64,000 bases of DNA, from assembly GCA_965113315.1 (NCBI GenBank), contig OZ220372.1. One strand, given 5' to 3'. The notes below the pieces were generated by a model, which made no database searches, was not told the DNA's origin, and was given only the letters and a program-made list of their open reading frames with translations. Shown piece by piece: positions 11,028 through 64,000 of the stretch (positions are counted from its first letter, which is position 1; each line of letters starts with the position of its first letter). This stretch comes from Podarcis vaucheri (lineage: Eukaryota). Made by a program: the position numbers and the translations under genes.

Positions 11028-11259
11028 CAGTGGTACCTCGGGTTAAGTACTTAATTCATTCCGGAGGTCTGTACTTACACCTGAAACTATTTTTAACCTG
11101 AAGCACCACTTTAGGTAATGGGGCCTCCCGCTGCCAGAGCACAATTTCTGTTCTCAACCTGAAGCAAAGTTCTTAACCTGAAGCACTATTTCTGGGTTAG
11201 CGGAGTCTGTAACCTAAAGCGTATGTAACCTGAAGCGTATGTAACCCGAGGTACCACTG
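11028..11259. mobile_element. Tigger/pogo-like MITE (AACCTGAAGC-repeat family)
   Basis: TIR CAGTGGTACCTCGGGTTA / TAACCCGAGGTACCACTG, TA TSD, repeated TAACCTGAAGC motif. Confidence 0.9.
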
Positions 11260-13232
11260 TATACCATATACTTGACGGTCATTCTTATTGGTCTCAATGG
11301 GGCTTAGTTCTGACAAAGCAAGCATAGAGTTGCACTCTAGAGCTGCAGGCTTGTGTACACTTAGACTGTGAGCTAACCCCCTTGGACAGCATAGAATATT
11401 GCTGCAGGTTTTGTTGTTTATTTGTCTCCATTTATATACACTACATGCTCTCAAAACCCACTGGATCCCTTTTTCAAGCCCCCCCCCCCCCGCAAAAATG
11501 TTGTTTATTTTAAAAAACAGTTCAACGGGAAGAGGGAAAGATCTGATTTTGGAGTGTGTCTGTGTGAGCACGACCAGAATGCATAAGTAGTTTTGAAATA
11601 AAATGAGGAGCCAAGACAAGGCGAGGAAACAATAACCTTGGAGATTAAGATCAGAAAATTGAACACAACTTTGAATTGACCGACTGCAAACGTATTAAGG
11701 TGCCAACAAACCTCAAATATAAAAAAGAAGGAAATGAAGGAAGAAATAGAAATGAAGGAAAACTTGCCTTGCTGTAATATTTTTGGTGCCAAAATCTTCA
11801 TATTGCCATTTCTTCATGCTGATTGTTATGGGTGGACAATTAAAAGGAATATAAATTCATTAGCGCTGAAGATTTTGGTTCCCAATTGTCAGTGAAAAAT
11901 TATTGTTGCCCAGAATATTTAAATGAATCTGCAAATGAAGACTAAACTTTGTAAGGAGGCTGAACACTTTAGTAGTGGGATGTGAGGGTGAGAGATTCAA
12001 TGTAGCTTAAGCTTTTCCTCTCCAAGCATTAAAAAAAAAAGCTCAAACAGGTTTGGTTAAGCGGCATTTCCGTGTGTTTTTCTCTATGGTTGAAAAAGTC
12101 ATTGGGGATGGAGGAATTTTGAGAAAGAAAGAAAGAAGCGTCCAAGGGAAATGGGTTAAGCAGCTTCTAACCCTCTCCGTCCACCATTCATAAGTCCAGA
12201 TATGCAGCCTTCTGCATCTGCCTTCTAGTAAGCAAAAAGAACACTGGGTGACAAGTACATGCTTCTGCCCTGTAAGGTGCATGTGGAGAATCCTTCACCC
12301 ATCAGCTGCTGCTGAACTATAACTCTCCTCAGTCCCTGCAAGGATGAACGTCTAGCCTGGCCCTGAAATATGTCAAACATTGTGTACTGAGCTCTCAACA
12401 AGCTCGCACGCCAACAACAGTTTCTTCTGCAGAGCTATTTAAATGTTGTACAGCCACGATAATAGCAAAAAAAAGACCGTAGCAGCAGAACAGATAGCTA
12501 AACTGCTCTGTGTTGAAAAACGCTGTGATGTCTGCCAACCAGATTTGCTTCCTGCTCTTTAAACCTGCTGTGTTCTCCATGATTCCCTTTATTCTTTGCT
12601 GTGAAATTTCTTGTCAGGTGAAGGCTTAACACATCTTACTCATTTCTGCTCAAAAGCAGCTGGTGTGGCAAAGGGATGCTTCTGGAAAATGATGGGAGTG
12701 GAAAATGTACCCTTAAAAAAGAAGAAGAAGAAAGCAAGCCATTTGTAAGCACCACTAAGTAAAAGTGTAATTAGTTTTTATTGTCTAGGTATCTTCATCT
12801 AACTAAATGAATCCATTCCTTACATGCGACACTTTCTTGGATGGCGAAGCGTAAATAATGCCGTCAGCAAGCTAACTGGTCTCCTGGGAGATTCCAAGCC
12901 TTTGGGTGAGGTTCATTTATTCTAGTCCTATTGTTTTTCTGCATGTAAATTAGATGAAGGAGGCCAGACTCATCTTTATAAGAGCAGAAGAGAGAAAATG
13001 AAATCATGGAAACTTTGTTACTCTACTGCTCTTATGTGTCAGGAGAGGAGAAGCTTTTCCTGAAAGTAAGAACTGAATGTATAGCTTCTTCACCTTTTAT
13101 ATCCTGCTTCACACTTTGACCCACCAGGCTGAATACAGACCACTGGTCAAATGCTGTAACTGGCAGAGTGCCTCGTGATTTCCCTGTTTTTCCCCAGCCC
13201 TGGGTAGGCAGTAAAACTAAAATAATGCTAGT

Positions 13233-21755: not shown

Positions 21756-22560
21756 ATTTACCAGTCTTGCTGTATATTCCCTGGAGAATTTGGCATATGT
21801 TGACAAATGCATTTGAAAAATGACAATGTATTTTTTGCATCCCCTCCCCCATATTTTCCATGTTTTTTTTATTGTGGTCTATGGTCTGGAGACTATTGGT
21901 TTTGAACTGATTGATTGGAAAATATTTGTTAAATATTTATAACTTAAATATTTATAAGTGTCTTATAGGAAAGGGAAAGAAGAAATCAAGAAAAGAATAG
22001 AAGACAATCTGAGAATTCCTTTATCTTTTATTATCATGCAAGAGATTAATTTCAGCAGATGCAGCTTCTCTTATCCCTTCATGGAAAGTGCACCTATTGA
22101 AATTAATAGTGGTGCAGGATAAGGAAAGATACAGAAGCTTTATCCTCCCTTGCATCTGGTCACTGGACATTGCACCAAAAGAAAGTGCTATGTGAGCAGA
22201 GTGACTGTGGGAAATCAAGGAGCAGGAAACCAAAGTTGATAAGTAGCAAGTTATTTTCCTGTAGTCTGGAAGAGTAAAGGCTCAGAATGCAGAAATTTAA
22301 CAAGAAATGAGGATGAATAGAACATTAATAGGCTTTGGAGGAGGGAGTCTATCAAGGCATAAGAGCCAACTCCTAGGGGCTGAGGTCCTTTCAGCACAAT
22401 CAAATATTTGAAGAAGCTGGTCCCTTAAAGCCATTCAAATAGTGTGCAAACACCGTGTATTGTGATTGATTATGTGGGGTGGGACTTACCTGTCCCCTCC
22501 CCCAATATTTTATTCAAGTTGGCAACCCCCGTATCAAGGAATCTATAGCAAATACCGGTA

Positions 22561-22799
22561 CAGTGGTACCTCGGATTACATACGATTCAGGTTACATACA
22601 CCTCAGGTTACAGACTCTGCTAACCCAGAAATAGTGCTTCAGGTTAAGAACTTTGCTTCAGGATGAGAACAGAAATCGTGCTCCGGTGGTGCAGCAGCAG
22701 GAGGCCCCATTAGCTAAAGTGGTGCTTCAGGTTAAGAACAGTTTCAGGTTAAGTACGGACCTCCGGAACAAATTAAGTACTTAACCCAAGGTACCACTG
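22561..22799. mobile_element. Tigger/pogo-like MITE, same family as 11028-11259, opposite orientation
   Basis: CAGTGGTACCT / AGGTACCACTG TIRs, TA TSD, repeated TTCAGGTTA. Confidence 0.9.
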
Positions 22800-23406
22800 T
22801 AGATCCTTTGAGTAGGGGATCTCTGGATATGGATTTGAGGACATTCTGCAACAGAGATATAAAAGTAGGAGTCCCAGGGAGGGCCAAAGTGAAAAAGTAA
22901 CCTAATCCTTTTGAAAATGAAATGATAAGGATTAATCAGGCTTCAGTATCCCCTCCTGCTTATTGACTGAGACAGGAGAAAACTAAGGATTGTCTTAAAA
23001 TTGGAAAAATACATTCTTGAAACTACGGCGATTCTGAATTACTGCTGCCAAGCTTTAGTCAGTTAAAGCAAAGAAGGGTGTGACGTGTAAAGAACTTAAT
23101 GCAAGAACTCCTGATAGCAAAGAACTTAACATACATTTCAAACTCAGCTGCTTTCACTGTGGTTTACCTGCACCACGCACAGTGGAATGTGCATGGATAG
23201 CTCTGTCCCCTTGACATCAGGATGTGTGCTGGCATTAGTACTGACCCAGTTTGTGATTGGCTGAGTCTGAAAGGGACCACCCCCTCACCCGTAGGGCTTC
23301 CAGCACAGGAGCAAGTACTCTGAGCTCCAATCTCAGCTTTGAAAACCCTGGCTGATTATGTGAAAGTGTCACCTCTCGCAAGCATGTCATGAAAGGGGAG
23401 CCTCTG

Positions 23407-43801: not shown

Positions 43802-43996
43802 GGGGAGGGTCATAGCTCAGTGGTAGAACACTTGCCTTGCATACAGAAGGTCCCAGGTTGAATCCCTGGTATCTCCAAATAGGGCTGCAGAAGACTCCCT
43901 TCCTGGAACCCTGGAGAGCCGCTGCTAGTACTTAGTTAGATGGACCAGTGATCTGGTCTTAGTTAGATGGACCAGTGACATAGGAACAGCTTCCTG
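43802..43996 (+). mobile_element. tRNA-derived SINE (decayed)
   Basis: A box TAGCTCAGTGG, B-box-like GGTTGAATCCC, tail tagatggaccagtga...cagcttcct. Related pieces near 26180-26240 and 35095-35176. Confidence 0.7.
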
Positions 43997-46900: not shown

Positions 46901-48213
46901 CCACTGGGGCAGTTACTCCATCTAGTTCAATACTGGCCACTTCAGCTGGTGGCCTCTTTCCATGGTCTCAGGCACAGAACTGTCGCCAGACCTGGAAACA
47001 GAGACCCTATACTTACAAATGCTAAGGATAGAATCTTGAACTGTGCATGCAAAACTTGTGCTGTACCACAGAGCAGCAGTGCCTCTTGCCAGGGGCACCA
47101 CTAGGGCCAGAGCCCCACCGCCACCAGCAGCAATACTATACTGGCCAACAGTCTCACTTAGCAGTTAGCTGTTGGGCAGTTTCCTAATGCAGCAAATGGT
47201 TTTAGAATTTTTGAATCAATGGAGACATTTGCTGTTGCTGCTGTTGTTTCTCTATGAGGAATTGAAGACTATTTAGACACCACTGCTTCCTTGCCCTCAC
47301 GGCCACCTCCTTTTACTTCTATCAGCTTGCACTTCATCACTCTCAATGTTTTCATGGTTCATTTCCCATAGATGAACTTCAGCCTTCTTGTATCATGAAC
47401 AAAAAATGCTGTGGCATCTGCCTTTATGTTTTGACATGGTAGTGCACATGTTACTTGAAAGCAAATCTGACTTTCTTTGGTTTCATTTGCATTCTATATT
47501 TCATTTTTATACACAAGATTAACCCCCCCCCCACACACACACCATAAACAGAAGTGCTATACCTGAAGTAGCAAAGCAGATCACTATAAATTTGGGCTCT
47601 CTAATGTGGTGCCTGCAGCACTGTCACTCGCTCAGAAACCACTCTTGGCACCTATCAATTTTTTTAAAATGAGGGATTTGTGCTTTTGTTTTGGTTGGAG
47701 GGCTTGTATGGGTTTTTTTGGGGGGGGTGTTGCTTTTTTATCTGGTTTTTATGGGGGGGCATGTGACTGTTAGCCTGCTTTGGGGTATAATTTCTGAGTA
47801 TCACCAGTTTTTCTTCTGTGAAATAAATTTTGTGGTGCCCAGAACAGTTTCTTAGTTTTCTGCACGTACCTCCTATGATAAACACAGAAGCAAGACATCA
47901 TTGTGGTTGTACATGTGAATGTCTGCATTCAAGAATCATGTGCTTTTGGTTGCCTTTTTGTCTTATAATTCAATGGTTCTTTTAATGATTGTAACTAAAG
48001 ATTTATTCTATTTTTTAACATGCCTTGCAATAGCTGATACCCAAACAGCATATAGTACAAGTATCACATTTTAAAATATCAAAAGATATAATTTCTCAGA
48101 ATTTGTGTTGGCTAATCAAATTGTTCGTTAATCCATATTGTTTTAAAAGTATTTCTTGCTAGTTGTAGACAACAGCATTCATGTGCGAACAGTGCATAAA
48201 CCCAAAAGATATA

Positions 48214-48456
48214 CAGTGGTACCTTGGGTTAAGTACTTAATTCGTTCTGGAGATCCATTCTTAACCTGAAACTGTTCTTAACCTGAAACTGTTCTTAACC
48301 TGAAGCACCACTTTAGCTAATGAGGCCTCCTGCTGGTGCCACGCCGCTGGAGCATGATTTCTGTTCTCATCCTGAATCAAAGTTCTTAACCTGAGGTAAT
48401 ATTTCTGGGTTAGCGGAGTCTGTAACCTGAAGCGTATTTAACCCAAGGTATCACTG
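48214..48456. mobile_element. Tigger/pogo-like MITE, same family as 11028-11259
   Basis: CAGTGGTACCTTGGGTTAA / TTAACCCAAGGTATCACTG, TA TSD, internal 18-bp duplication. Confidence 0.9.
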
Positions 48457-51400
48457 TAGTCCATATACTGGAGTGTTTCCATTCAGTTCCACAGAAAGTT
48501 CATGGGCTGAGCTGGGTCAGACATTCAGAATACTTTGTGTCTGCATTCATGTACAGAGCAAAACATGTCACATTAAATCATAGTTAAAAGCAAACTGTGA
48601 ACTGGCAGTGTGTCAGTGCAAACTGGTGAAAAGTTCCTGCTCTACTTCTCCCTTGCTCCTGCTGCTGTTGTACCACTGGAAAACAAGCCAAAATATGACT
48701 TTTCCCGATTGCAGAACCCGAGATTCTTCTTTTGGGGGTGGGGGGCGGAACCACAAGTCTGAGTCTGGACATTATGAAGAGTCAGATTCCTAGCTTGTTG
48801 GTGCAACAACAGCAGGCACAGACAAGGAGCACAGCAGCATTTCAGCAGCATTCACTGCACAATTCACATTAAACCATAGTTTGTTTTAGTTTGTGGTTTA
48901 TTATGAACCAGGCCAATGTGCCGTCTGGGGCATCCATTGATATAGCTGCAGCTTTCTGGTGGCATTTTTTGAGACTGTGGCAACACGTTTTTCAGCTATT
49001 TTGATCTCGGTAATCACTCTGGCAATGCTGGGTGTACCTTGGGTGATATTCTGCCTTTGCCATTTGAATGAGTTCATGGAGCAATCAGGGAACATCTCGT
49101 GGATAATGTTTTAGCACTCCTTGGGCATTCTAGATCCCATGAAGAGCAATACGGGAGCTGGGCTGTGCACCAATACACCACTTCTCCTGATATCCATGCT
49201 TACAGAACAAATGTCTGCAGGAGAGTGCCTTCAAGTATACAGTCATATTTGCAAAGGCTTTTTCATGATCTGGAGCCAATTGTGCATTTGGATACCAGGC
49301 GAGGGGTTTCTTAGCACATGTGACATTAGAGGCTGCTACCATTGCTTTGCTCTTCATGGGAGCCAGAATGCCTGAACAGGGCTTTTGGATGTCTGAAATT
49401 GCCTTAAGGAACTTCTGCATTGTTAGATAATGCATCTCTTCCAGAATTGTTCAATTGCCGTCAGTGAGAATACTGTGGATTTGGGGTACCAGGGGTAAAG
49501 CTTGCTCAAGTTTGTTGTAATAGAATTAGGAACTGTGTCTTTTAATTCAGGTTCTTACATCTTAAAATATTCAGAAACAGTAAATGAATTCCACAATGCT
49601 GACATTTTATAGTATTAATAATGATTATATTAATTCAAGTTAATTATGTCCAGACACTCAGAATCATGTATAACTAATTGAATCTTATTTTCCCTAGAGT
49701 GTTTCAAGTGGTTGCAGACAACTAGTGATTAGATGTTCAAAAAAATTAGAAGTTGCAGTGTATTTGGGTAGGTAGTGGCAGCACAGACTTCCATGCTGCA
49801 AGTCGAATCCTGAGATCCATATGCCTAATGCTCAACTGAATAGGCACTAGTGATTAGTTATTTCTGGAATGTAAAGATTGTCTGTCTGTCTGGTTCCTAT
49901 ATGTATTAAGCATTTTAATCTGCGGTGGTTCCCCCCCCCCAAATATAAATTTATGACGAGATTAACAGTGAGCTTAGTTATCAGCCTGCAACATTTGTGT
50001 CAAATTCTTTTTCATCTTTATGCTCCTTTTGTCAGTCACCCCTAGTGTCAGGCACCTTCCTAAACTCATATATGCTCTTTATTCATTGACCAAATATAAG
50101 GGCGCTGTGAGAACATTTAGAACAACTCCTAAAAATAAGGCACTAGACATCCAGCAATTCCTATCATCATTTCCTTGTTGTGTTCTTTAAGCATTTAAGT
50201 ATTTGGAGGCATCCCAGAAAAATACACTTTGACTAAATCCCATTGAAAGCAAAGTAGAACTTGGTTACCACTAATAAGCCGCAAGAGACTTACTCATCAT
50301 AATTAACTTCTGCTGGGTTCACAAATCAATGCAACCCTATTTGCATTAGAGGGAGTCTCTCCAGGCCAAAGTAGATGTGGTATAGTACCCAATGCAGTTA
50401 GCTACTCCAGAGGGGGAATTTTCCCCAGGACCACAGCAGGAGCAGAAAGGATCAAAATCCCCCTCTTAGCCTGCTGCGGTTGCAGGAATTCCCCTTCCAA
50501 TAGTTGCCATTTGCCTTAAACCTGCAGTTTAAATGCAAAGGCATACTTTAACATCACATCTCTTTTGGCCCTCATTATTAGCTGGAGTGGTAGTGGGAGC
50601 CCTGTGAGCGGACCTCTTAAATTTCAGGTTTTATATGCCAATGATCTCCCTTGGACTCATAATATTATTTACAATTAAATGCATTGCAAAACTGAGGTGT
50701 ACATGTCCATAGCCATGTACTATTAAAGTTAAAGTTTTGAATAAAGCATATCCTGAAGATTGTAGTCCAACTCTGCCGCTGCAATTATAGAGAGAACTCA
50801 CTCAAGTAATTAACACTCAGTAAAATAATTAACTGGGGGGGGGGAGAGAGATCTACACTACCAAGACAGACCTTGGCATATTCTTACTTTTCTATCCTTG
50901 TTTCAGCACAAATTTCTGTAGTCCTTTCTAGTGTTTTGAAAAAATATGGTTATTTTCTTTTATCACTTACTCAATATCCCCACCCACTGAAAACAAATGT
51001 TGAGTACTGAAGGTGTGTGATCATGGAGATAATGAGCAGTAATTTGCATTCCTCTTTTGTGGTCATCTGTGTTCCTTTTAGCTTCTTCTGGGACATATTT
51101 TATGAACGTGACAGGGAGTTAAATAAGTTACCCGTGTTTCAGCCTGGTCTTGCCGATAAGTCTTCCTCATTTATATACAAACTGGCAAATGTTTTGGGAT
51201 CTGAACATGAAGTCCCCTTATGAACGACAGCGTGAAGTGCTGCACGCACACCTAATTGTGTTTCAAATCCTCAGGCAAAGTGCTACTAAGCAGATTATTC
51301 ACACGTACCCTTAAGCTATAAGAAGATGAAGTGAAAAGCAGAAATGTAAGGGTAAATAAGTATTTCAGTTTGTTGGCACCATGACAGATAGATATACAGA

Positions 51401-52997: not shown

Positions 52998-53249
52998 CAG
53001 TGGTGCCTCGCAAGACGAAAAGAATTCATTCCGCGAGTCTTTTCGTCTTGCGATGTTTTTCGTCTTGCGAAGCACCGTCCGTCGCAACTGCGACTCTTCA
53101 AGCGGCTTTAAAAAAAAGTGCAAGACGTTTTCGTCTTGCGAAGCAAGCCCATAGGGAAATTCGTCTAGCGAAGCAATGCAAAAACGGAAAACCCTTTCGT
53201 CTAGCGAGTTTTTCGTCTTGCGAGGCATTCGTCTTGCGGGGCACCACTG
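52998..53249. mobile_element. Tigger/pogo-like MITE (TTCGTCTTGCG-repeat family)
   Basis: TIR CAGTGGTGCCTCGCAAGACGAA / TTCGTCTTGCGGGGCACCACTG, TA TSD, CpG intact. Confidence 0.9.
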
Positions 53250-54975
53250 TACTGGCACAGAATCTGTTTGGTCCCTGTGAGATTCTTAAAGGAGACTATT
53301 CCGTGAATGGACTTAGGTTTTTTGGAGGGTGGGTGGTGGGTGGTGGGTGGGCGGCAATCAGCCATTTAGCCTCAACCTCAGCCTCCTTCACCTCATTTCA
53401 GAGATCCAACAGATAAGGTACAAGACCAAAATAGCTCTGCAAAATATTTCTGTTCCACAGAGGATTCCACCTTGATCTGAAAAGACTGTTGAAAAGCTAG
53501 TGCAACAGTTCAGCTCTTTTTTCTGACTTTAATGATATCATTTGGGGTGAATGTGGTCTATGATGACAAACAATGCAGCTCATTAAAATATGGTCTCCAA
53601 CTGTTCTTCTGTCTAGCAATTTTATAAATTACTAATGAGAATTAGATTTACATCCCCCCCTTATACTTAGATTCTCCACTTACACTGGAATCCTATGTAT
53701 GTTTACACAAAAGTTTACTCAGCCAATAGAACTTTATTCCAGGAAAGTGTTATAGCAGGGGTGACTCGTGGCTAACCTGTTGGCGATATTCAACACTTTA
53801 GGGTCCATATGCCTACAGCAGATATGAGCAAACCTGGGTACAGCTGATCCATTCATACACGACAGAGGGAGAGAGTTCTGCCACCTTGCAGTCCAGTACA
53901 CTCTTACCAATGGGACTTCCTTCTGTATAGACACATCTAGAGTTGCACTCTTGGTAGCCTACAGACCTGTCTTCTTTGAATAAAAATGCTGCAATGTGCA
54001 GAGGTTGATAATGATGAATACAAAACCTTCAAACACTGTAATAATGACAATGACCACAGCAATCATTCATGACTAGGTGCAAAATGTCAAAATTGGAAAG
54101 AATTGTATCTCATGTTGTATCCTTAAATAATGTGACATTACATCTTGGTGTGTTTTTTAAAGTGCAAATGCTTGTCTGTTTGAGACATATCACATCCCTA
54201 CAAGAGGTCTAAAAGTTGTAGTACTTTCCCCGATTTAATTATCTTGCACTTTCCAGATGCAGTCTGTCTGCTATTGACATGGGAAATTTCATTTTGTTGC
54301 AATATCTTTCGCGTGTGTCTCCTTGATATTGATAACAGTTGCTTGTGTTGCTGCTTATCTCCTTTTTAATTCTGAAAATGTAATAAAGAAAGGAAATACA
54401 AGTAGAAGCTAGATGCTGTGGTTAGGCAGACAGCCTTCAAAGCCTTGCATCAAAATCAAGCTAATACTGAGGGGAAACCTAGTACGCTTCTTGTAGCTTA
54501 AGTTTTTCTTTTATTATTTTCATACGCCGCTATCTTGAGGCAACACAGTTCACAAGGCACTGTTTCAGCATGCCGACAAAACAAACCATGGTCCAAACAA
54601 TAAGGAAATGAAAGAGGTTCCCATGGGATTCCCTGTTACATCTCCGAGCAAGTTTTTGGAATGTATGGTTAATTATCACATTCGTCTACACTGTGATTCT
54701 TTCATGCACATTTATGTTTGGATTCATTTCCTAAACAAAACATCCATAGTTAATCATGCAGTTCAGTGGGGCTAATCAGAATGGTGGCTTAGTCACAATG
54801 AAATCATTGGGCGTGGAAGGGCAGGATGCTTTGCAATTGTTCCACAACAAAATTACGCACAGGTGGCAAGTTGGTGCATGGACCTCTTTTAATAGGTGTG
54901 AGTTTGATTTCATCTTTGCATTTCTTTAGAAAATGGAAGCAGTCAAGATTTGAGCAAGGGCAGCCCACTCCATTA

Positions 54976-54999
54976 ATATATATATATATATATATATAT
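54976..54999. repeat. (TA)n tract, left part of the insertion target
   Basis: Direct reading. Confidence 0.95.
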
Positions 55000-55354
55000 G
55001 GGACGCGGGTGGCGCTGTGGGCTAAAGCCTCAGCGCCTAGGGCTTGCCGATTGAAAGGTCGGCGGTTCGAATCCCCGCGGCGGGGTGCGCTCCCGCTGTT
55101 CGGTCCCAGCGCCTGCCCACCTAGCAGTTCGAAAGCACCCCCGGGTGCAAGTAGATAAATAGGTACCGCTTACCAGCGGGAAGGTAAACGGCGTTCCGTG
55201 TGCGGCTCTGGCTCGCCAGAGCAGCGATGTCACGCTGGCCACGTGACCCGGAAGTGTCCCCGGACAGCGCTGGCCCCCGGCCAATAAATGTGAGATGGGC
55301 GCACAAACCCCACAGTCTGTCAAGACTGGCCCGTTCGGGCAGGGGTACCTTTAC
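55000..55354 (+). mobile_element. Sauria SINE (Squam1-type), full length and young
   Basis: GGGACGCGGGTGGCGCTGTGGG head, B box GGTTCGAATCC, ACCTTTAC tail, CpG-rich, flanked by TA repeats. Confidence 0.9.
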
Positions 55355-55358
55355 ATAT

Positions 55359-55405
55359 AGACACCCCGACTCTTACACGGGAAGACACCCGAAGACACCA
55401 AAACC

Positions 55406-55410
<5 letters not shown>
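55359..55410 (+). mobile_element. 52-bp inverted fragment of the PLE 5' region
   Basis: Exact reverse complement of 55473-55524. Confidence 0.95.

Positions 55411-55444
<34 letters not shown>
55409..55444. repeat. (AT)n tract between two PLE 3' ends
   Basis: Direct reading. Confidence 0.95.
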
Positions 55445-55446
<2 letters not shown>

Positions 55447-55526
55447 TTTCGTAGATTTTCACGGGTACAGGAATGCAGGTTTTGGTGTCTTCGGGTGTCT
55501 TCCCGTGTAAGAGTCGGGGTGTCTGG

Positions 55527-55564
55527 GCGACGTTTCGACGAGGTCTCACTCGTCATCTTCAGGC
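55527..55564 (-). ncRNA. Minimal type I hammerhead ribozyme motif (3'-most copy)
   Basis: gc-CUGAAGA-U-GACGAG-ugagac-CUCGUC-GAAACGUC^gc: conserved core, 6-bp helix II, palindromic ACGU in place of helix III; helix I only 2 bp by eye. Confidence 0.75.
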
Positions 55565-55619
55565 TGGTGCTTTCGGCTTCTTGTTACTGGAACAGAGCAG
55601 AATCTGGTGTTTGAGTTCC

Positions 55620-55627
55620 TATAAATA
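55620..55627. promoter_or_regulatory. TATA-like box in the PLE spacer (also 58581-58588, 61542-61549)
   Basis: TATAAATA (+) / TATTTATA (-), 64 nt upstream of the ORF ATG in every unit. Confidence 0.45.
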
Positions 55628-55796
55628 CTGTTGAGGGGTGTGGTGTATAGCCTCCAACGTTCTGGGCAGAGAGGAAGTTCCTAGATTAGTGTGCCTTTTC
55701 TTCTTTTGTTCCTTAATTACTTGAGGGATATCTTGAGTGATTTCATGAGTGATATTCTGAATACCATTGGGTGGGTCATTAAGTGTAGATTAGTTG

Positions 55797-58517
55797 CTAA
55801 AGCTTTCGTGTCTTGACCTCTTGAGCTTGTGAAGAGTTTTTCTGAGAAGATGGCTGTGCTGCATTTAGTTGTGCTCTGGCTTGGCTTCGTGTATAGGGGC
55901 GAGCTGTAATTTTGTGCCTTGTGCCAGCCAGATCTGTGTAGGGATTGCAGGGGGGTGCAGCATCCGGAGGTGCCACTATAGTTTGGCTACTGGATGGAGT
56001 CTGTAATATGTCTGTGGAGAGGGTCTGGGTTTGGGTCTGGTGTGGTTGATTGGTGACGGCGTTCTGTGTGCCTCTGGTTCTGGTGTCGGTTTTTGTGGGG
56101 AGGGCTAATTTCCAGATGTCAGGCAGGCGGGACGTGTCGTCACGCTTGTTCATGTTGTGAGGGTGTTTCTCTATCTCGATGGCTTCCATGATTATTCTCT
56201 TGTGGTGATGTTCCATGTTAAAGAGCAATTTGGAATCTGCAAAATTAATTTCGTGTCCTGTTTCTTTCATGTGTTGGAAAAGAGAGGAAGTTTTTTCTTC
56301 TTTTTTGACGGCATTCTTGTGTTCTGCGATACGTGCATTTATTCGTCTGTTTGTTTGTCCAATGTACGTGGCTGGGCAGACTTTGCAGGGTATTTCATAG
56401 ACCCCTTGGTTTTCGAGCTGGATTTTGTCTTTTGGGTTTCTGAGGATATTGGCTATTTTTTGGTTGGTGCAGAAGGCTGTTTTGATATTGTGTTTATGGA
56501 GGATTTTGCTAATTTTGTCTGTAGTGCCCTTGATGTAAGGAAGGAGGGCCATGCCATTGTTTTCTTCTGTGTCTTGGTTTTTGGGGGGTGTTTCTTTTTG
56601 GATTAGCTTCGTAACCTTGTTTTTCTGGTATCCATTGGCGATTAACACATTTGAGAGATTCTGTAACTCAGTTGTCAAGTGGTCTTTGTCAGCCAGGCGT
56701 TTGGTTCTGGAGATGAGAGTCTTGGCTACGGAGTTTATTTGTGCAGGGTGGTGGTGTGATTGTGCATGTAAGTAGCGGTTGGTGTGTGTTTTTTTCCGGT
56801 AGATAGTGTGTCCTAGGGAGCCATCAGGTTTTTTGTAGATTAGGACGTCAAGAAAGGGGAGTTGGTTGTTGTCTTCTATTTCCATAGTGAATTGTATTTT
56901 GGGGTGTAGACTGTTGAGATGTGTGAGGAAGCTATCTAGTTTTTCTTTCCCGTGTGGCCAAATTACAAAGGTGTCGTCAACATATCTGAGCCAAAGTTTG
57001 GGTTTGTGTTCTGACTTGTCTAAAGCATTGGTTTCAAAGTGTTCCATGTACAAATTTGCGATGACCGGTGAGAGGGGTGATCCCATAGGTGCTCCTTCTA
57101 TCTGTTTGTATCTTTGTCCATTGTGGATGAAGTACGTGTTGGTTAGGCAGTGGTTGGTCAGGTCCAGAATGTATTTGGGGGGATTGTATTTGTTTTGAAT
57201 GGCTGTCAAGGCTTCATTAATGGGCACTTGAGTGAAGAGAGATACAACATCGAAGCTCACAAGTAGGTCATCGGGATGTAGGTATTGCTTCTTTATTGTT
57301 TCTATGAACTGGAAGGAGTTAGTAACGTGTGAAGCGATGGATTCTGCATAGGGCTGAAGTTGCTTAGCGAGAAATTTAGCGAGATTTTGTAGAGGTGAGC
57401 CTATGGAGCTGACTATTGGTCTGAGTGGTGTTCCTTCTTTGTGTATCTTGGGGAGACCGTAGAGTTTGGGGCATCTGGATGATTTTTCTCTGGGGATGAT
57501 TCTTAGCTGGATTTCTTCACTGATAGGAGAGGCTTTTATTTTGGATTTGGTGGTTTTTTCCAGATAGGTGGTGGGATCTGTTTTTATAGGTTGGTAGGTA
57601 GGGTCTTGGAGTAGATTTGATAGTTTTGCTTGGTAGTCCGATGTGTTCATCACAACAGTGGCGTTGCCTTTGTCTGCTGGGAGAATGATTATGTTGTTGT
57701 CTTTTCTCAGGTTGGTGAGTGCTTTCTGTTCTTCTTTGTGTAAATTGCTTCTGGGTGGTTTGCTGGAGCAGAGGATGTTGGTGACTTCAAGTCTGATTTT
57801 ATTGGCTTCATCTGGGTCGATTTTAGTCAGGCTAGCTTCGACTCCGCATATGATGTTTTCCGTGGGGATGCGTCTCGGGGCGACTGCAAAGTTGAAACCT
57901 TTGGAGAGTACTTTGGTTTCAGTTGGGGTGAGGATCCTGTCTGATATGTTATGTACTGTTTGTTTCATGGGTTGTTGTGGAGGGTGGCTGGGCTTCTGGC
58001 GTTTCTCTAGTTTGTAGAGTTTGTTGGTGTGTCTGTCTGTCTTATGTGAGGTCTCAGTTTCAGCTCTCCAGACGGCTAGTTGTTTGCATTTGTCCCAGAG
58101 TGCAGGGTGGATTTTGTTACATAGTTTGAGGTGAAGAGTGAGCAGATCTTTGTTGGTTTGGTTTAGTAGGTATCTTTTCTTATGTATTTCGTTTCTGATT
58201 AGGGATAGTTCAGTTCGTTTCAGGATCCTTTCGGTAGCTGGGGTTTTAGAGTGGAATTTAAGTTGGAAGCATGTGGGAGTTAAGTTGTTGTCTCGGCATT
58301 TGCGTAGGAACAGGAGATCACATAAGATGGTGGCTCTTCGGATTTCTAGTTTCTCGTAGGTTCTTGTCAGCTGGAAGGTTTCCTCCCCGTAGAGGTGAGA
58401 TATTTGCTTTCGTAGATTTTCACGGGTACAGGAATGCAGGTTTTGGTGTCTTCGGGTGTCTTCCCGTGTAAGAGTCGGGGTGTCTGGGCGACGTTTCGAC
58501 GAGGTCTCACTCGTCAT
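55797..58517 (-). CDS. PLE polyprotein, 906 aa: N-terminal domain, reverse transcriptase, GIY-YIG endonuclease (Penelope/Poseidon type)
   Basis: IILPADKGNATVVM, LYGLPKIHK..PLRPIVS, SFDVVSLFT, GAPMGSPLSP, WLRYVDDTF, LPFLDV, GVYEIPCKVC...YIGQT; no Cys-rich linker between RT and endonuclease. Confidence 0.97.
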   Translation of the reverse strand: MTSETSSKRRPDTPTLTREDTRRHQNLHSCTRENLRKQISHLYGEETFQLTRTYEKLEIRRATILCDLLFLRKCRDNNLTPTCFQLKFHSKTPATERILKRTELSLIRNEIHKKRYLLNQTNKDLLTLHLKLCNKIHPALWDKCKQLAVWRAETETSHKTDRHTNKLYKLEKRQKPSHPPQQPMKQTVHNISDRILTPTETKVLSKGFNFAVAPRRIPTENIICGVEASLTKIDPDEANKIRLEVTNILCSSKPPRSNLHKEEQKALTNLRKDNNIIILPADKGNATVVMNTSDYQAKLSNLLQDPTYQPIKTDPTTYLEKTTKSKIKASPISEEIQLRIIPREKSSRCPKLYGLPKIHKEGTPLRPIVSSIGSPLQNLAKFLAKQLQPYAESIASHVTNSFQFIETIKKQYLHPDDLLVSFDVVSLFTQVPINEALTAIQNKYNPPKYILDLTNHCLTNTYFIHNGQRYKQIEGAPMGSPLSPVIANLYMEHFETNALDKSEHKPKLWLRYVDDTFVIWPHGKEKLDSFLTHLNSLHPKIQFTMEIEDNNQLPFLDVLIYKKPDGSLGHTIYRKKTHTNRYLHAQSHHHPAQINSVAKTLISRTKRLADKDHLTTELQNLSNVLIANGYQKNKVTKLIQKETPPKNQDTEENNGMALLPYIKGTTDKISKILHKHNIKTAFCTNQKIANILRNPKDKIQLENQGVYEIPCKVCPATYIGQTNRRINARIAEHKNAVKKEEKTSSLFQHMKETGHEINFADSKLLFNMEHHHKRIIMEAIEIEKHPHNMNKRDDTSRLPDIWKLALPTKTDTRTRGTQNAVTNQPHQTQTQTLSTDILQTPSSSQTIVAPPDAAPPCNPYTDLAGTRHKITARPYTRSQARAQLNAAQPSSQKNSSQAQEVKTRKL

Positions 58518-58525
58518 CTTCAGGC
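58488..58525 (-). ncRNA. Minimal hammerhead ribozyme motif (middle copy)
   Basis: Identical to 55527-55564. Confidence 0.75.
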
Positions 58526-58757
58526 TGGTGCTTTCGGCTTCTTGTTACTGGAACAGAGCAGAATCTGGTGTTTGAGTTCCTATAAATACTGTTGAGGGGT
58601 GTGGTGTATAGCCTCCAACGTTCTGGGCAGAGAGGAAGTTCCTAGATTAGTGTGCCTTTTCTTCTTTTGTTCCTTAATTACTTGAGGGATATCTTGAGTG
58701 ATTTCATGAGTGATATTCTGAATACCATTGGGTGGGTCATTAAGTGTAGATTAGTTG

Positions 58758-61478
58758 CTAAGGCTTTCGTGTCTTGACCTCTTGAGCTTGTGAAGAGTTT
58801 TTCTGAGAAGATGGCTGTGCTGCATTTAGTTGTGCTCTGGCTTGGCTTCGTGTATAGGGGCGAGCTGTAATTTTGTGCCTTGTGCCAGCCAGATCTGTGT
58901 AGGGATTGCAGGGGGGTGCAGCATCCGGAGGTGCCACTATAGTTTGGCTACTGGATGGAGTCTGTAATATGTCTGTGGAGAGGGTCTGGGTTTGGGTCTG
59001 GTGTGGTTGATTGGTGACGGCGTTCTGTGTGCCTCTGGTTCTGGTGTCGGTTTTTGTGGGGAGGGCTAATTTCCAGATGTCAGGCAGGCGGGACGTGTCG
59101 TCACGCTTGTTCATGTTGTGAGGGTGTTTCTCTATCTCGATGGCTTCCATGATTATTCTCTTGTGGTGATGTTCCATGTTAAAGAGCAATTTGGAATCTG
59201 CAAAATTAATTTCGTGTCCTGTTTCTTTCATGTGTTGGAAAAGAGAGGAAGTTTTTTCTTCTTTTTTGACGGCATTCTTGTGTTCTGCGATACGTGCATT
59301 TATTCGTCTGTTTGTTTGTCCAATGTACGTGGCTGGGCAGACTTTGCAGGGTATTTCATAGACCCCTTGGTTTTCGAGCTGGATTTTGTCTTTTGGGTTT
59401 CTGAGGATATTGGCTATTTTTTGGTTGGTGCAGAAGGCTGTTTTGATATTGTGTTTATGGAGGATTTTGCTAATTTTGTCTGTAGTGCCCTTGATGTAAG
59501 GAAGGAGGGCCATGCCATTGTTTTCTTCTGTGTCTTGGTTTTTGGGGGGTGTTTCTTTTTGGATTAGCTTCGTAACCTTGTTTTTCTGGTATCCATTGGC
59601 GATTAACACATTTGAGAGATTCTGTAACTCAGTTGTCAAGTGGTCTTTGTCAGCCAGGCGTTTGGTTCTGGAGATGAGAGTCTTGGCTACGGAGTTTATT
59701 TGTGCAGGGTGGTGGTGTGATTGTGCATGTAAGTAGCGGTTGGTGTGTGTTTTTTTCCGGTAGATAGTGTGTCCTAGGGAGCCATCAGGTTTTTTGTAGA
59801 TTAGGACGTCAAGAAAGGGGAGTTGGTTGTTGTCTTCTATTTCCATAGTGAATTGTATTTTGGGGTGTAGACTGTTGAGATGTGTGAGGAAGCTATCTAG
59901 TTTTTCTTTCCCGTGTGGCCAAATTACAAAGGTGTCGTCAACATATCTGAGCCAAAGTTTGGGTTTGTGTTCTGACTTGTCTAAAGCATTGGTTTCAAAG
60001 TGTTCCATGTACAAATTTGCGATGACCGGTGAGTGGGGTGATCCCATAGGTGCTCCTTCTATCTGTTTGTATCTTTGTCCATTGTGGATGAAGTACGTGT
60101 TGGTTAGGCAGTGGTTGGTCAGGTCCAGAATGTATTTGGGGGGATTGTATTTGTTTTGAATGGCTGTCAAGGCTTCATTAATGGGCACTTGAGTGAAGAG
60201 AGATACAACATCGAAGCTCACAAGTAGGTCATCGGGATGTAGGTATTGCTTCTTTATTGTTTCTATGAACTGGAAGGAGTTAGTAACGTGTGAAGCGATG
60301 GATTCTGCATAGGGCTGAAGTTGCTTAGCGAGAAATTTAGCGAGATTTTGTAGAGGTGAGCCTATGGAGCTGACTATTGGTCTGAGTGGTGTTCCTTCTT
60401 TGTGTATCTTGGGGAGACCGTAGAGTTTGGGGCATCTGGATGATTTTTCTCTGGGGATGATTCTTAGCTGGATTTCTTCACTGATAGGAGAGGCTTTTAT
60501 TTTGGATTTGGTGGTTTTTTCCAGATAGGTGGTGGGATCTGTTTTTATAGGTTGGTAGGTAGGGTCTTGGAGTAGATTTGATAGTTTTGCTTGGTAGTCC
60601 GATGTGTTCATCACAACAGTGGCGTTGCCTTTGTCTGCTGGGAGAATGATTATGTTGTTGTCTTTTCTCAGGTTGGTGAGTGCTTTCTGTTCTTCTTTGT
60701 GTAAATTGCTTCTGGGTGGTTTGCTGGAGCAGAGGATGTTGGTGACTTCAAGTCTGATTTTATTGGCTTCATCTGGGTCGATTTTAGTCAGGCTAGCTTC
60801 GACTCCGCATATGATGTTTTCCGTGGGGATGCGTCTCGGGGCGACTGCAAAGTTGAAACCTTTGGAGAGTACTTTGGTTTCAGTTGGGGTGAGGATCCTG
60901 TCTGATATGTTATGTACTGTTTGTTTCATGGGTTGTTGTGGAGGGTGGCTGGGCTTCTGGCGTTTCTCTAGTTTGTAGAGTTTGTTGGTGTGTCTGTCTG
61001 TCTTATGTGAGGTCTCAGTTTCAGCTCTCCAGACGGCTAGTTGTTTGCATTTGTCCCAGAGTGCAGGGTGGATTTTGTTACATAGTTTGAGGTGAAGAGT
61101 GAGCAGATCTTTGTTGGTTTGGTTTAGTAGGTATCTTTTCTTATGTATTTCGTTTCTGATTAGGGATAGTTCAGTTCGTTTCAGGATCCTTTCGGTAGCT
61201 GGGGTTTTAGAGTGGAATTTAAGTTGGAAGCATGTGGGAGTTAAGTTGTTGTCTCGGCATTTGCGTAGGAACAGGAGATCACATAAGATGGTGGCTCTTC
61301 GGATTTCTAGTTTCTCGTAGGTTCTTGTCAGCTGGAAGGTTTCCTCCCCGTAGAGGTGAGATATTTGCTTTCGTAGATTTTCACGGGTACAGGAATGCAG
61401 GTTTTGGTGTCTTCGGGTGTCTTCCCGTGTAAGAGTCGGGGTGTCTGGGCGACGTTTCGACGAGGTCTCACTCGTCAT
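58758..61478 (-). CDS. PLE polyprotein, 906 aa, second tandem copy
   Basis: Same protein except GSPLSP to GSPHSP (nt 60034) and terminal L to P (nt 58762). Confidence 0.97.
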   Translation of the reverse strand: MTSETSSKRRPDTPTLTREDTRRHQNLHSCTRENLRKQISHLYGEETFQLTRTYEKLEIRRATILCDLLFLRKCRDNNLTPTCFQLKFHSKTPATERILKRTELSLIRNEIHKKRYLLNQTNKDLLTLHLKLCNKIHPALWDKCKQLAVWRAETETSHKTDRHTNKLYKLEKRQKPSHPPQQPMKQTVHNISDRILTPTETKVLSKGFNFAVAPRRIPTENIICGVEASLTKIDPDEANKIRLEVTNILCSSKPPRSNLHKEEQKALTNLRKDNNIIILPADKGNATVVMNTSDYQAKLSNLLQDPTYQPIKTDPTTYLEKTTKSKIKASPISEEIQLRIIPREKSSRCPKLYGLPKIHKEGTPLRPIVSSIGSPLQNLAKFLAKQLQPYAESIASHVTNSFQFIETIKKQYLHPDDLLVSFDVVSLFTQVPINEALTAIQNKYNPPKYILDLTNHCLTNTYFIHNGQRYKQIEGAPMGSPHSPVIANLYMEHFETNALDKSEHKPKLWLRYVDDTFVIWPHGKEKLDSFLTHLNSLHPKIQFTMEIEDNNQLPFLDVLIYKKPDGSLGHTIYRKKTHTNRYLHAQSHHHPAQINSVAKTLISRTKRLADKDHLTTELQNLSNVLIANGYQKNKVTKLIQKETPPKNQDTEENNGMALLPYIKGTTDKISKILHKHNIKTAFCTNQKIANILRNPKDKIQLENQGVYEIPCKVCPATYIGQTNRRINARIAEHKNAVKKEEKTSSLFQHMKETGHEINFADSKLLFNMEHHHKRIIMEAIEIEKHPHNMNKRDDTSRLPDIWKLALPTKTDTRTRGTQNAVTNQPHQTQTQTLSTDILQTPSSSQTIVAPPDAAPPCNPYTDLAGTRHKITARPYTRSQARAQLNAAQPSSQKNSSQAQEVKTRKP

Positions 61479-61486
61479 CTTCAGGC
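61449..61486 (-). ncRNA. Minimal hammerhead ribozyme motif (5'-most copy)
   Basis: Identical to 55527-55564. Confidence 0.75.
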
Positions 61487-62015
61487 TGGTGCTTTCGGCT
61501 TCTTGTTACTGGAACAGAGCAGAATCTGGTGTTTGAGTTCCTATAAATACTGTTGAGGGGTGTGGTGTATAGCCTCCAACGTTCTGGGCAGAGAGGAAGT
61601 TCCTAGATTAGTGTGCCTTTTCTTCTTTTGTTCCTTAATTACTTGAGGGATATCTTGAGTGATTTCATGAGTGATATTCTGAATACCATTGGGTGGGTCA
61701 TTAAGTGTAGATTAGTTGCTAAAGCTTTCGTGTCTTGACCTCTTGAGCTTGTGAAGAGTTTTTCTGAGAAGATGGCTGTGCTGCATTTAGTTGTGCTCTG
61801 GCTTGGCTTCGTGTATAGGGGCGAGCTGTAATTTTGTGCCTTGTGCCAGCCAGATCTGTGTAGGGATTGCAGGGGGGTGCAGCATCCGGAGGTGCCACTA
61901 TAGTTTGGCTACTGGATGGAGTCTGTAATATGTCTGTGGAGAGGGTCTGGGTTTGGGTCTGGTGTGGTTGATTGGTGACGGCGTTCTGTGTGCCTCTGGT
62001 TCTGGTTCTGGTTCT

Positions 62016-63916
62016 ACAACATAATCATTCTCCCAGCAGACAAAGGCAACGCCACTGTTGTGATGAACACATCGGACTACCAAGCAAAACTATCAAATCT
62101 ACTCCAAGACCCTACCTACCAACCTATAAAAACAGATCCCACCACCTATCTGGAAAAAACCACCAAATCCAAAATAAAAGCCTCTCCTATCAGTGAAGAA
62201 ATCCAGCTAAGAATCATCCCCAGAGAAAAATCATCCAGATGCCCCAAACTCTACGGTCTCCCCAAGATACACAAAGAAGGAACACCACTCAGACCAATAG
62301 TCAGCTCCATAGGCTCACCTCTACAAAATCTCGCTAAATTTCTCGCTAAGCAACTTCAGCCCTATGCAGAATCCATCGCTTCACACGTTACTAACTCCTT
62401 CCAGTTCATAGAAACAATAAAGAAGCAATACCTACATCCCGATGACCTACTTGTGAGCTTCGATGTTGTATCTCTCTTCACTCAAGTGCCCATTAATGAA
62501 GCCTTGACAGCCATTCAAAACAAATACAACCCCCCCAAATACATCCTGGACCTGACCAACCACTGCCTAACCAACACGTACTTCATCCACAATGGACAAA
62601 GATACAAACAGATAGAAGGAGCACCTATGGGATCACCCCTCTCACCGGTCATCGCAAATTTGTACATGGAACACTTTGAAACCAATGCTTTAGACAAGTC
62701 AGAACACAAACCCAAACTTTGGCTCAGATATGTTGACGACACCTTTGTAATTTGGCCACACGGGAAAGAAAAACTAGATAGCTTCCTCACACATCTCAAC
62801 AGCCTACACCCCAAAATACAATTCACTATGGAAATAGAAGACAACAACCAACTCCCCTTTCTTGACGTCCTAATCTACAAAAAACCTGATGGCTCCCTAG
62901 GACACACTATCTACCGGAAAAAAACACACACCAACCGCTACTTACATGCACAATCACACCACCACCCTGCACAAATAAACTCCGTAGCCAAGACTCTCAT
63001 CTCCAGAACCAAACGCCTGGCTGACAAAGACCACTTGACAACTGAGTTACAGAATCTCTCAAATGTGTTAATCGCCAATGGATACCAGAAAAACAGGGTT
63101 ACGAAGCTAATCCAAAAAGAAACACCCCCCAAAAACCAAGACACAGAAGAAAACAATGGCATGGCCCTCCTTCCTTATATCAAGGGCACTACAGACAAAA
63201 TCAGCAAAATCCTCCATAAACACAATATCAAAACAGCCTTCTGCACCAACCAAAAAATAGCCAATATCCTCAGAAACCCAAAAGACAAAATCCAGCTGGA
63301 AAACCAAGGGGTCTATGAAATACCCTGCAAAGTCTGCCCAGCCACGTACATTGGACAAACAAACAGACGAATAAATGCACGTATCGCAGAACACAAGAAT
63401 GCCGTCAAAAAAGAAGAAAAAACTTCCTCTCTTTTCCAACACATGAAAGAAACAGGACACGAAATTAATTTTGCAGATTCCAAATTGCTCTTTAACATGG
63501 AACATCACCACAAGAGAATAATCATGGAAGCCATCGAGATAGAGAAACACCCTCACAACATGAACAAGCGTGACGACACGTCCCGCCTGCCAGACATCTG
63601 GAAATTAGCCCTCCCCACAAAAACCGACACCAGAACCAGAGGCACACAGAACGCCGTCACCAATCAACCACACCAGACCCAAACCCAGACCCTCTCCACA
63701 GACATATTACAGACTCCATCCAGTAGCCAAACTATAGTGGCACCTCCGGATGCTGCACCCCCCTGCAATCCCTACACAGATCTGGCTGGCACAAGGCACA
63801 AAACCACAGCTCGCCCCTATACACGAAGCCAAGCCAGAGCACAACTAAATGCAGCACAGCCATCTTCTCAGAAAAACTCTTCACAAGCTCAAGAGGTCAA
63901 GACACGAAAGCTTTAG
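62016..63916 (+). pseudogene. 5'-truncated but uninterrupted PLE RT + GIY-YIG reading frame
   Basis: Starts at NIIILPADKG and keeps all RT and endonuclease motifs; lacks the first ~274 aa, promoter and native ATG. Confidence 0.85.
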
Positions 63917-64000
63917 CAACTAATCTACACTTAATGACCCACCCAATGGTATTCAGAATATCACTCATGAAATCACTCAAGATATCCCTCAAGTAATTAA
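62016..64000 (+). mobile_element. 5'-truncated inverted PLE copy, running off the window end
   Basis: Reverse complement of 58674-60658 with about 10 substitutions. Confidence 0.96.

Follow-up and report, generated by a model that had tools for sequence, protein, structure and literature searches.

Among the closest described systems is PAc, a Poseidon element of Anolis carolinensis with a single ORF for an RT plus a GIY-YIG endonuclease at the C-terminus, found at tandem loci (PMC11167929; this paper, PMC2377424, PMC8557442, PMC3846280 and PMC7229834 are cited here from parts of their text). Its ATG lies at the start of hammerhead stem II, with the cut 26 nt downstream, and reverse transcription starts at two internal sites about 30 nt apart, by an AC-rich stem-loop, on AT-rich targets. 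The enzyme both cuts and extends each of the two strands, and the model for it is a dimer; copying of more than a unit is not among the tests in the cited part of that study. Drosophila virilis Penelope and Penelope-like elements (PLEs) in general form partial tandems of one unit plus a part, making pLTRs, at microsatellite targets (PMC2377424, PMC8557442, PMC3846280). The general layout includes an inverted 5'-truncated copy at the 5' end and an optional tail of 30-40 bp.

How such tandems form is still called undefined in the cited parts of PMC8557442 and PMC11167929, and no mechanism of pLTR regeneration is known in that of PMC2377424. In 2014, PLE tandems were proposed to arise by way of a circle (PMC4209133). 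Animal non-LTR retrozymes, which consist of head-to-tail units with one type I hammerhead each and a dimer-dependent fold (PMC7229834; bioRxiv 10.64898/2026.07.22.740005), are shown to make circles, but are noncoding and only 170-400 nt long. Among the matches listed from the non-subscription literature, titles and abstract openings hold no report of a full-length PLE circular RNA.

Results

The window, the whole 64,000-nt stretch of Podarcis vaucheri DNA analyzed here, contains no N. On its minus strand, an insert of 6563 bp (55444-62006) comprises 2.216 units with a period of exactly 2961 bp: 3599 of 3602 compared positions match at this period, against 1020 of 3602 at periods of 2960 and 2962. 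Unit 1, the first copied (55444..58404), holds the insert 3' end at ORF +113, a pLTR and an intact ORF body. It is followed by unit 2 (58405..61365) and by a partial unit 3 of 641 bp (61366..62006) whose 5' truncation lies 528 nt upstream from the third ATG. The 641-bp terminal direct repeats (55444-56084 and 61366-62006) are identical. The three mismatched pairs (55801/58762, 57073/60034, and 58762/61723) reflect two variant sites, 58762 and 60034, both substitutions private to the middle unit; unit 1, partial unit 3 where it covers them, and the inverted copy described below all agree there. These results bear out an earlier note on this DNA, which had described 2.2 seamless units and full units differing at only two positions. 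The insert length it gave, 6563 bp, stands for the minus-strand part but not for the whole, since the inverted copy from 62016 was omitted.

The first ORF (55797..58517, minus strand), the single ORF of the element, encodes 906 aa from the first Met, with an N-terminal domain, a DKG motif at residue 282, an RT matching the RVT_1 profile (E = 6.7e-15) and, at the C-terminus, a GIY-YIG endonuclease (EN). The GIY-YIG match (residues 704-743, E = 0.0011) is weaker than the Pfam cutoff; its motifs align with those of the Anolis protein P0023, which shares 45% identity over 773 aa. We take P0023 to be PAc because, by eye, its N-terminus matches the RNA letters that the PMC11167929 supplement gives. 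The element's protein is 96% identical to a Podarcis protein, and a search of solved structures gave four weak matches to bacterial RTs and none to a PLE. An additional Zn-finger in the RT-EN linker is a mark of Neptune and Nematis (PMC8557442); the linker here has none, with one Cys (683) between residue 457 and the EN Cys pair 711/714, and Neptune membership was rejected for this reason. Pairwise similarity and domain order indicate that the element is a Poseidon-clade Penelope-like (EN+ PLE) retrotransposon, of a family separate from PAc and with a longer C-terminal tail (906 aa versus 836 aa). The PLE class assigned in the earlier note thus agrees with the PLE-type RT, DKG, GIY-YIG and partial tandem with pLTRs. 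The second ORF (58758..61478, minus strand) is likewise open for 906 aa and carries L482H in the GSPLSP motif of the RT and an altered last codon (first-Met numbering). L, I or V occupies this site in 112 of 120 relatives, with H in none of those 112 and no motif match in the other 8; L482H looks like an unselected copying error.

A scan of both strands for minimal hammerheads with a stem II of at least 4 bp gave three matches, all on the minus strand, identical and in register (55529..55562, 58490..58523, and 61451..61484). They are predicted minimal type I hammerheads cut after ORF +28, compared with 26 nt downstream in PAc, and the ATG (55556, 58517, and 61478, respectively) lies at the start of stem II, as it does there. 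The motif has the core, a 6-bp helix II and a self-complementary helix III. Helix I has only 2 bp, as in the D. virilis hammerhead, and helix III is loopless; both count against a circle. An Rfam gathering search of the window reported no hammerhead, its sole match being tRNA-like at 43806, so the ribozyme is a descriptor match rather than a curated-family match. As such predicted matches, the hammerhead and the three scarless passes over its cleavage site are present as first described. The head-to-tail units with one predicted type I hammerhead each, whose fold would depend on a dimer, resemble non-LTR retrozymes, but membership in that group was rejected because the unit is 2961 nt long, autonomous and coding, with a 906-aa ORF and a minimal predicted hammerhead.

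A predicted AC-rich stem-loop (55453..55511, minus strand) adjoins the RT start sites +84 and +113 to +118, and has a counterpart in PMC11167929; folded on its unit-2 twin (58414-58472), it gives z = -2.6. In RNA runs X23 and X21, depth shows no drop at the predicted cut and none of the three begin/end positions listed (of four) falls there, at low power: the runs are labeled as a related species, placement was only partial for 432 of 698 and for 373 of 559 reads, and the libraries were not circle-oriented.

The insert adjoins a (TA)17 target microsatellite (55410..55443), and loose ends into (TA)n recur in public runs at 58400-58405 and 58434, respectively (42 and 23 contigs in X1, 15 and 8 in X4, and 30 and 12 reads in X23). 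Across the microsatellite lies a 52-bp fragment of opposite orientation (55359..55410, plus strand), spanning ORF +33 to +84; it is likely a separate insertion, with (TA)17 likely having primed this fragment and the long insert alike. Its 3' end has no tail. Its 5' end lies 4 nt short of the predicted cut, an observation in favor of a circle; for copies no longer than 100 nt the chance is about 0.06, in a single case noticed post hoc. The 3' ends in the window, +113 and +84, coincide with the two internal positions known for RT initiation, which are separated by about 30 nt at an AT-rich target and recur in the public runs. A SINE (54999..55352, plus strand), which we take to be Sauria-SINE-like, is located between (TA)11 and the 52-bp fragment.

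At the opposite end, a 9-nt junction filler (62007..62015) extends a 6-nt repeat ending the long cDNA and contains no palindrome. Beyond it, an inverted 5'-truncated copy (62016..64000, plus strand) starts at ORF +821 and continues past the window end, so that the whole insertion exceeds 8.5 kb. This copy differs from unit 1 at 10 positions in 1985 bp (99.5% identity) and is likely derived from a second RNA template. A junction without a palindrome and a partner of another haplotype argue against self-priming here; self-priming or fold-back was rejected on the missing palindrome, the start at +821 rather than -528, and the 10 differences. The layout of tandem and inverted partner is already known, whereas two full units plus a part exceed the one plus a part of Penelope and PLEs in general. 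No intron was noticed in the element.

The full units show 2 differences versus the partner's 10 in 1985 bp (p = 0.005 by Fisher's test on whole lengths and 0.038 on the same interval). Further, every pass carries, wherever it covers them, six alleles with a minor share in run X1 (0 to 9% of the depth summed), and the inverted partner has the X1 majority allele at all three of the six sites it covers. At least two haplotypes were therefore likely at hand, with all passes from one of them. Five of the six shared alleles occur in X1 at a minor share; the sixth, at 57825/60786, is absent from X1. Rare alleles common to the passes, together with a partner that differs at 10 of 1985 positions, make copying of the array from one donor likely, a new observation here. 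Switching among random family RNAs is judged unlikely, since a single haplotype runs through all passes.

In X4, nine single-contig depths fall exponentially along the cDNA direction, with a decay of 949 nt (r = -0.998) and no floor; these are hand-picked values from one run, with multi-contig sums and one 38-depth variant contig dropped, and contig depth is no copy number. X1 depths, whose rows are sums of many contigs, were left out of the fit; depth over the unit falls only about 7-fold in X1 versus about 58-fold in X4. Under the X4 curve, a 6563-nt cDNA is a 0.1% tail event if template is not limiting. At full-unit distance the curve shows no floor, which makes long arrays appear rare in X4.

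Discussion

Seamlessness had been read in the earlier note as the signature of rolling-circle reverse transcription or an uncleaved multimer, but a circle, an uncut multimer, a template switch in register and unequal exchange would each join units without a scar. It excludes only re-insertion of the element into its own pLTR, since such re-insertion leaves scarred pairs, like those in X1 contigs that join 58560, 58593, and 58828 to 58400 (joints from 58475 and from 58961 in X1, which have unknown letters in between, were set aside as uninterpretable). That route would duplicate part of the pLTR and was rejected because the period here is exact. Nor does the arbitrary 5' end, also taken to point to a circle, single it out, as ordinary 5' truncation fits. 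The alternatives listed in the note, read-through of a longer tandem donor and unequal crossover, are the right ones, with template switching missing, and the inverted partner that it omitted serves as the informative control.

The leading explanation, which we hold about as likely as not, is that the array was made in one insertion by an RT that passed in register over the unit of a single donor more than two times. In such an event the enzyme would cut both strands of (TA)n; the left end would prime cDNA at +113, the internal tail site, and be extended by 6563 nt, the right end would prime a second RNA from another donor, and the two cDNAs would be joined 5' to 5' over the 9-nt slipped filler. 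Tandems appear to arise anew, by analogy with transformed D. melanogaster, where most amplified Penelope copies are tandems with a variably truncated upstream copy (PMC2377424). The long cDNA could have re-entered its template at each turn in two ways: on a 2961-nt circle closed at the hammerhead cut, which is possible though doubtful, or, slightly less likely, by switching in register across the redundant pLTR onto RNA from the same donor. Both ways would leave the same sequence.

That this Poseidon family moves via a 2961-nt protein-coding circular RNA is a tentative proposal. Two half-hammerheads 3 kb apart would pair, cut and close the unit, and the start codon lost by the cut from a linear monomer would be restored in the circle. 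A dimeric RT would then travel around this circle, its partner meanwhile copying a second RNA from the opposite DNA end, and RNAs cut but left unclosed would leave stubs of 52-85 nt, like the neighboring fragment. Hammerhead retrozymes form circles in animals (PMC7229834), which counts for this route. Against it, PAc with a mutated hammerhead still inserts normally in vitro, the dominant substrate is said to be uncut RNA, and in the Anolis relative the cut is neither the beginning nor the end of any RNA reads (PMC11167929); partial tandems are also formed by Naiad and by most Chlamys elements, although canonical hammerheads are absent from them (PMC8557442). The circle of the earlier note is thus a live option, with the in vitro work on PAc favoring uncut RNA.

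Each feature of the array is also compatible with unequal exchange or with an uncut multimer. In the latter case, a donor array with at least 3 units under its own pLTR promoter, or at least 2.2 units within a host transcript, may have given a read-through transcript that stayed uncut and was copied a single time by ordinary reverse transcription from an internal start. Such a single molecule from one donor would account for the clonal passes, mRNA of several copies with uncut RNA as the main substrate is the published scenario for the Anolis relative (PMC11167929), PLEs are able to copy host read-through RNA (PMC3846280), and the X23 and X21 reads span the cut region without a drop. Still, we regard this route as rather doubtful: it only pushes the origin of the array back one step, as read-through would shorten arrays and not lengthen them, and on the floorless X4 curve a self-promoted three-unit donor would make up about 0.007% of copies.

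Expansion of a 1.2-unit insertion in place, through unequal exchange involving the 641-bp direct repeats at its ends, would also be seamless and clonal. The identical repeats are the substrate it needs, 1.2-unit inserts are about 22 times commoner on the X4 curve than a direct 6563-nt cDNA (2.2% versus 0.1%), and the allele missing from X1 could predate the duplication. We nonetheless consider it improbable, since two private changes in 6563 bp would probably leave little time for a rare event, and the minor share of the other five alleles in X1 is as expected of donor-lineage alleles. Near-identical 3-kb units with an adjoining inverted copy are hard to assemble (PMC8557442), so one unit might have been duplicated by the assembler. 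This seems very improbable given that the units differ by two substitutions and no indels in a window free of N, and units that share rare rather than family-majority alleles do not reflect many collapsed loci.

In a young polymorphic family such as this one, the haplotypes of an array and its inverted partner count the RNA templates per insertion and offer a cheap test of tandem origin, and the phase-switch positions of pLTR variants would separate a circle from read-through. If true, a 3-kb coding circle would be new as a retrotransposon intermediate, and would settle how PLEs regain a promoter-bearing pLTR.

Array structure and element identity

Self-comparison of the window aligns 55439-59045 directly with 58400-62006 and finds an inverted match running from 62016 to the window end. 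The minus-strand array at 55444-62006 holds 2.216 units at a period of exactly 2961 bp (3599 of 3602 positions agree, versus 1020 at neighbouring periods), and its terminal direct repeats measure 641 bp each. The earlier note's 2.2 units of 2961 bp are recovered, as are its two differences between full units, at 58762 and 60034; these are the variable sites of the array, both private to the middle unit (58405-61365). That unit carries an L482H change at a position occupied by L, I or V in 112 of 120 relatives (the other 8 gave no motif match), as would be expected of a copying error that escaped selection or of a new mutation. The 6563 bp reported for the insert is the size of 55444-62006; the insertion itself is longer, with an inverted copy that continues past a 9-nt filler (62007-62015) and leaves the window.

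Protein comparison gave 1121 matches among 8000 scored candidates, the best from Podarcis muralis (96%) and Vipera (P0002, 82% over the reverse transcriptase [RT] when compared with 55800-58517). A lower-ranked Anolis carolinensis protein (45% over 773 amino acids) is taken for that of PAc, the Poseidon element of this species, from a by-eye match to the RNA sequence given in the PMC11167929 supplement. Judged by the protein matches, the host is probably a lacertid lizard. Vipera at 82% versus Anolis at 45% may reflect separate subfamilies or horizontal transfer among squamates. Because no Cys cluster is present in the RT-endonuclease linker of the element's protein, Neptune membership is ruled out and the element is, judged by this protein, Penelope/Poseidon. 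The element is new, but its family and layout are already known: partial tandem, inverted 5' copy and tail form the textbook arrangement of Penelope-like elements (PLEs) (PMC8557442, PMC2377424 and PMC3846280), in line with the earlier note's statement that partial tandems are typical of PLEs.

Ends and target

Counted along the ORF from its first ATG, the array's 3' end lies at +113; a fragment of 52 bp in inverted orientation (55359-55410) covers +33 to +84. PAc starts reverse transcription at +111 to +118, a range that includes the array end, and its tail lies between two RT start sites; in both elements stem II of the hammerhead begins at the ATG, with the cut 26 nt downstream in PAc versus a predicted cut after +28 here (PMC11167929). 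Four public runs were compared over 57000-59940. Among the matches listed, loose ends into (TA)n fall at the two 3' end sites in at least 42 and at least 23 contigs of X1, at least 15 and at least 8 contigs of X4, and at least 30 and at least 12 reads of the RNA run X23. Because these ends recur at both sites, the 3' ends of the array and the 52-bp fragment are ordinary family ends. A SINE (54999-55352), presumably Sauria-like, the 52-bp piece and the long insert lie along one (TA)n tract (54977-55443), which appears to have received three insertions.

Elsewhere in the window, four short TA-flanked elements that carry terminal inverted repeats, which we take to be Tc1/mariner-type MITEs, lie at approximately 11029-11261, 22560-22800, 48213-48458 and 52998-53251; the first three are mutually related. 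A tRNA-like Rfam match at 43806-43877 (32.8 bits, broken pairs) is probably the head portion of a SINE derived from a tRNA.

Hammerhead motifs and seamless joining

A descriptor scan of both strands found three minimal hammerhead motifs, all on the minus strand and one per pass, which the Rfam search of the window did not report. Together with the exact period, they bear out the three scarless crossings of the predicted cut described earlier. Helix I has 2 pairs only, and helix III, a predicted self-complementary four-mer lacking a loop, requires two motifs for pairing. A TATA-like octamer on the sense strand, 71 nt upstream of the ATG (58581-58588, with twins in each unit), is a canonical TATA box when read on the antisense strand; some X1 copies seem to have received re-insertions near it (joints 58560 and 58593).

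The earlier note read seamlessness as a signature of a circle or multimer. That reading does not hold, since an exact period arises equally when a circle is closed at the cut, when a multimer stays uncut, when the template is switched in register and when the 641-bp repeats exchange unequally. The one route that seamlessness excludes is re-insertion into the AT-rich pLTR of the element itself (the redundant part of the partial tandem), which leaves scars, of which the array has none. At least three scarred joints in the public-run data connect 58560, 58593 and 58828 each to 58400 (among 12 listed rows of 42).

Insert length and templates

In X4, which comes from an individual other than the window's, nine single-contig depths show an exponential drop the farther they lie from the RT start (decay 949 nt, r = -0.998), with no floor near full length among the nine; they were hand-picked from the rows listed, leaving out multi-contig sums and one low-depth variant, and contig depth does not equal copy number. 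Between the bins on either side of the start, depth falls about 7-fold in X1 versus about 58-fold in X4. Given this exponential decay, the array's arbitrary 5' end, for which the earlier note proposed a circle, fits ordinary truncation. At face value, the share of copies that extend to one unit is 4%, to 1.2 units 2.2%, to 6563 nt 0.1%, and to three units plus promoter 0.007%; a 2.2-unit cDNA could therefore plausibly arise in the tail of this distribution if the template was re-entered, and few donors with three units under their own promoter are to be expected. Read-through would not lengthen arrays. Because of this, and because Penelope amplified in transformed flies is mostly tandem with a variably truncated upstream copy (PMC2377424), the analogy suggests that tandems are built by copying itself.

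Against unit 1, the plus-strand inverted partner has 10 differences in 1985 sites, versus 2 differences between units (p = 0.005 for whole lengths and 0.038 when both are restricted to the same interval). Of six alleles with a minor share in X1 (0 to 9% of the summed depth), each is present in every array pass that covers it; the partner has the X1 majority allele at all three of these sites that it covers. The partner is of a haplotype other than the array's, which suggests that one insertion used two RNA templates. More than one haplotype was then likely available, yet all array passes are of one, which favours a single template or a single donor and disfavours switching between random family RNAs. 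The partner begins at +821 and the long copy ends at -528; their junction filler prolongs a 6-nt repeat, and neither a palindrome nor (TA)n is present at the junction between them. In the simplest reading, synthesis would have been primed at both ends of a single double-strand cut, with RNAs from two different donors as templates, in agreement with PAc, which extends both strands and is modelled as a dimer (PMC11167929). The far end of the partner is predicted near 64240 or 64269-64274.

A possible circle and alternative routes

Circles, named in the earlier note for hammerhead retrozymes, are indeed demonstrated for those of animals (PMC7229834), and a 2026 preprint derives such retrozymes from PLEs (bioRxiv 10.64898/2026.07.22.740005). 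The demonstrated circles count in favor of a circle here, as do the length and haplotype results given above and as would the predicted need for two motifs to pair helix III. A linear monomer would lose its ATG at the predicted cut; closing into a circle would give it back. The 52-bp fragment begins at the no-tail RT start (+84), stops 4 nt before reaching the predicted cut (chance about 0.06, n = 1) and looks like run-off on cut RNA. On the other side, PAc hammerhead mutants insert normally in vitro, with no reads ending at the cut (PMC11167929), and Naiad and most Chlamys elements form the same tandems without canonical hammerheads (PMC8557442); the short predicted helix I would also argue against a circle. 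In the RNA runs X23 and X21 (sampled in part, about 12 and 6 in 100; another species label; reads mostly only partly aligned), depth is not lower at the predicted cut, and no rows begin or end there among the matches listed, from libraries not made for circles. Over 57594-58385, most first mates of X23 map to the plus strand, likely reflecting sense transcription of full-length copies.

Weighing these explanations by judgement rather than computation, we give about an even chance to the re-reading of one donor's unit within a single insertion. A circle, tentatively, takes the larger share of that chance, and a same-donor switch the smaller. An uncut multimer as template ranks between these two routes and is unlikely; unequal exchange is more doubtful still, and an assembly error is improbable. 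The circle hypothesis is already in print and, as far as the leading literature matches show, unproven; this locus is a good test case for it, not its signature.
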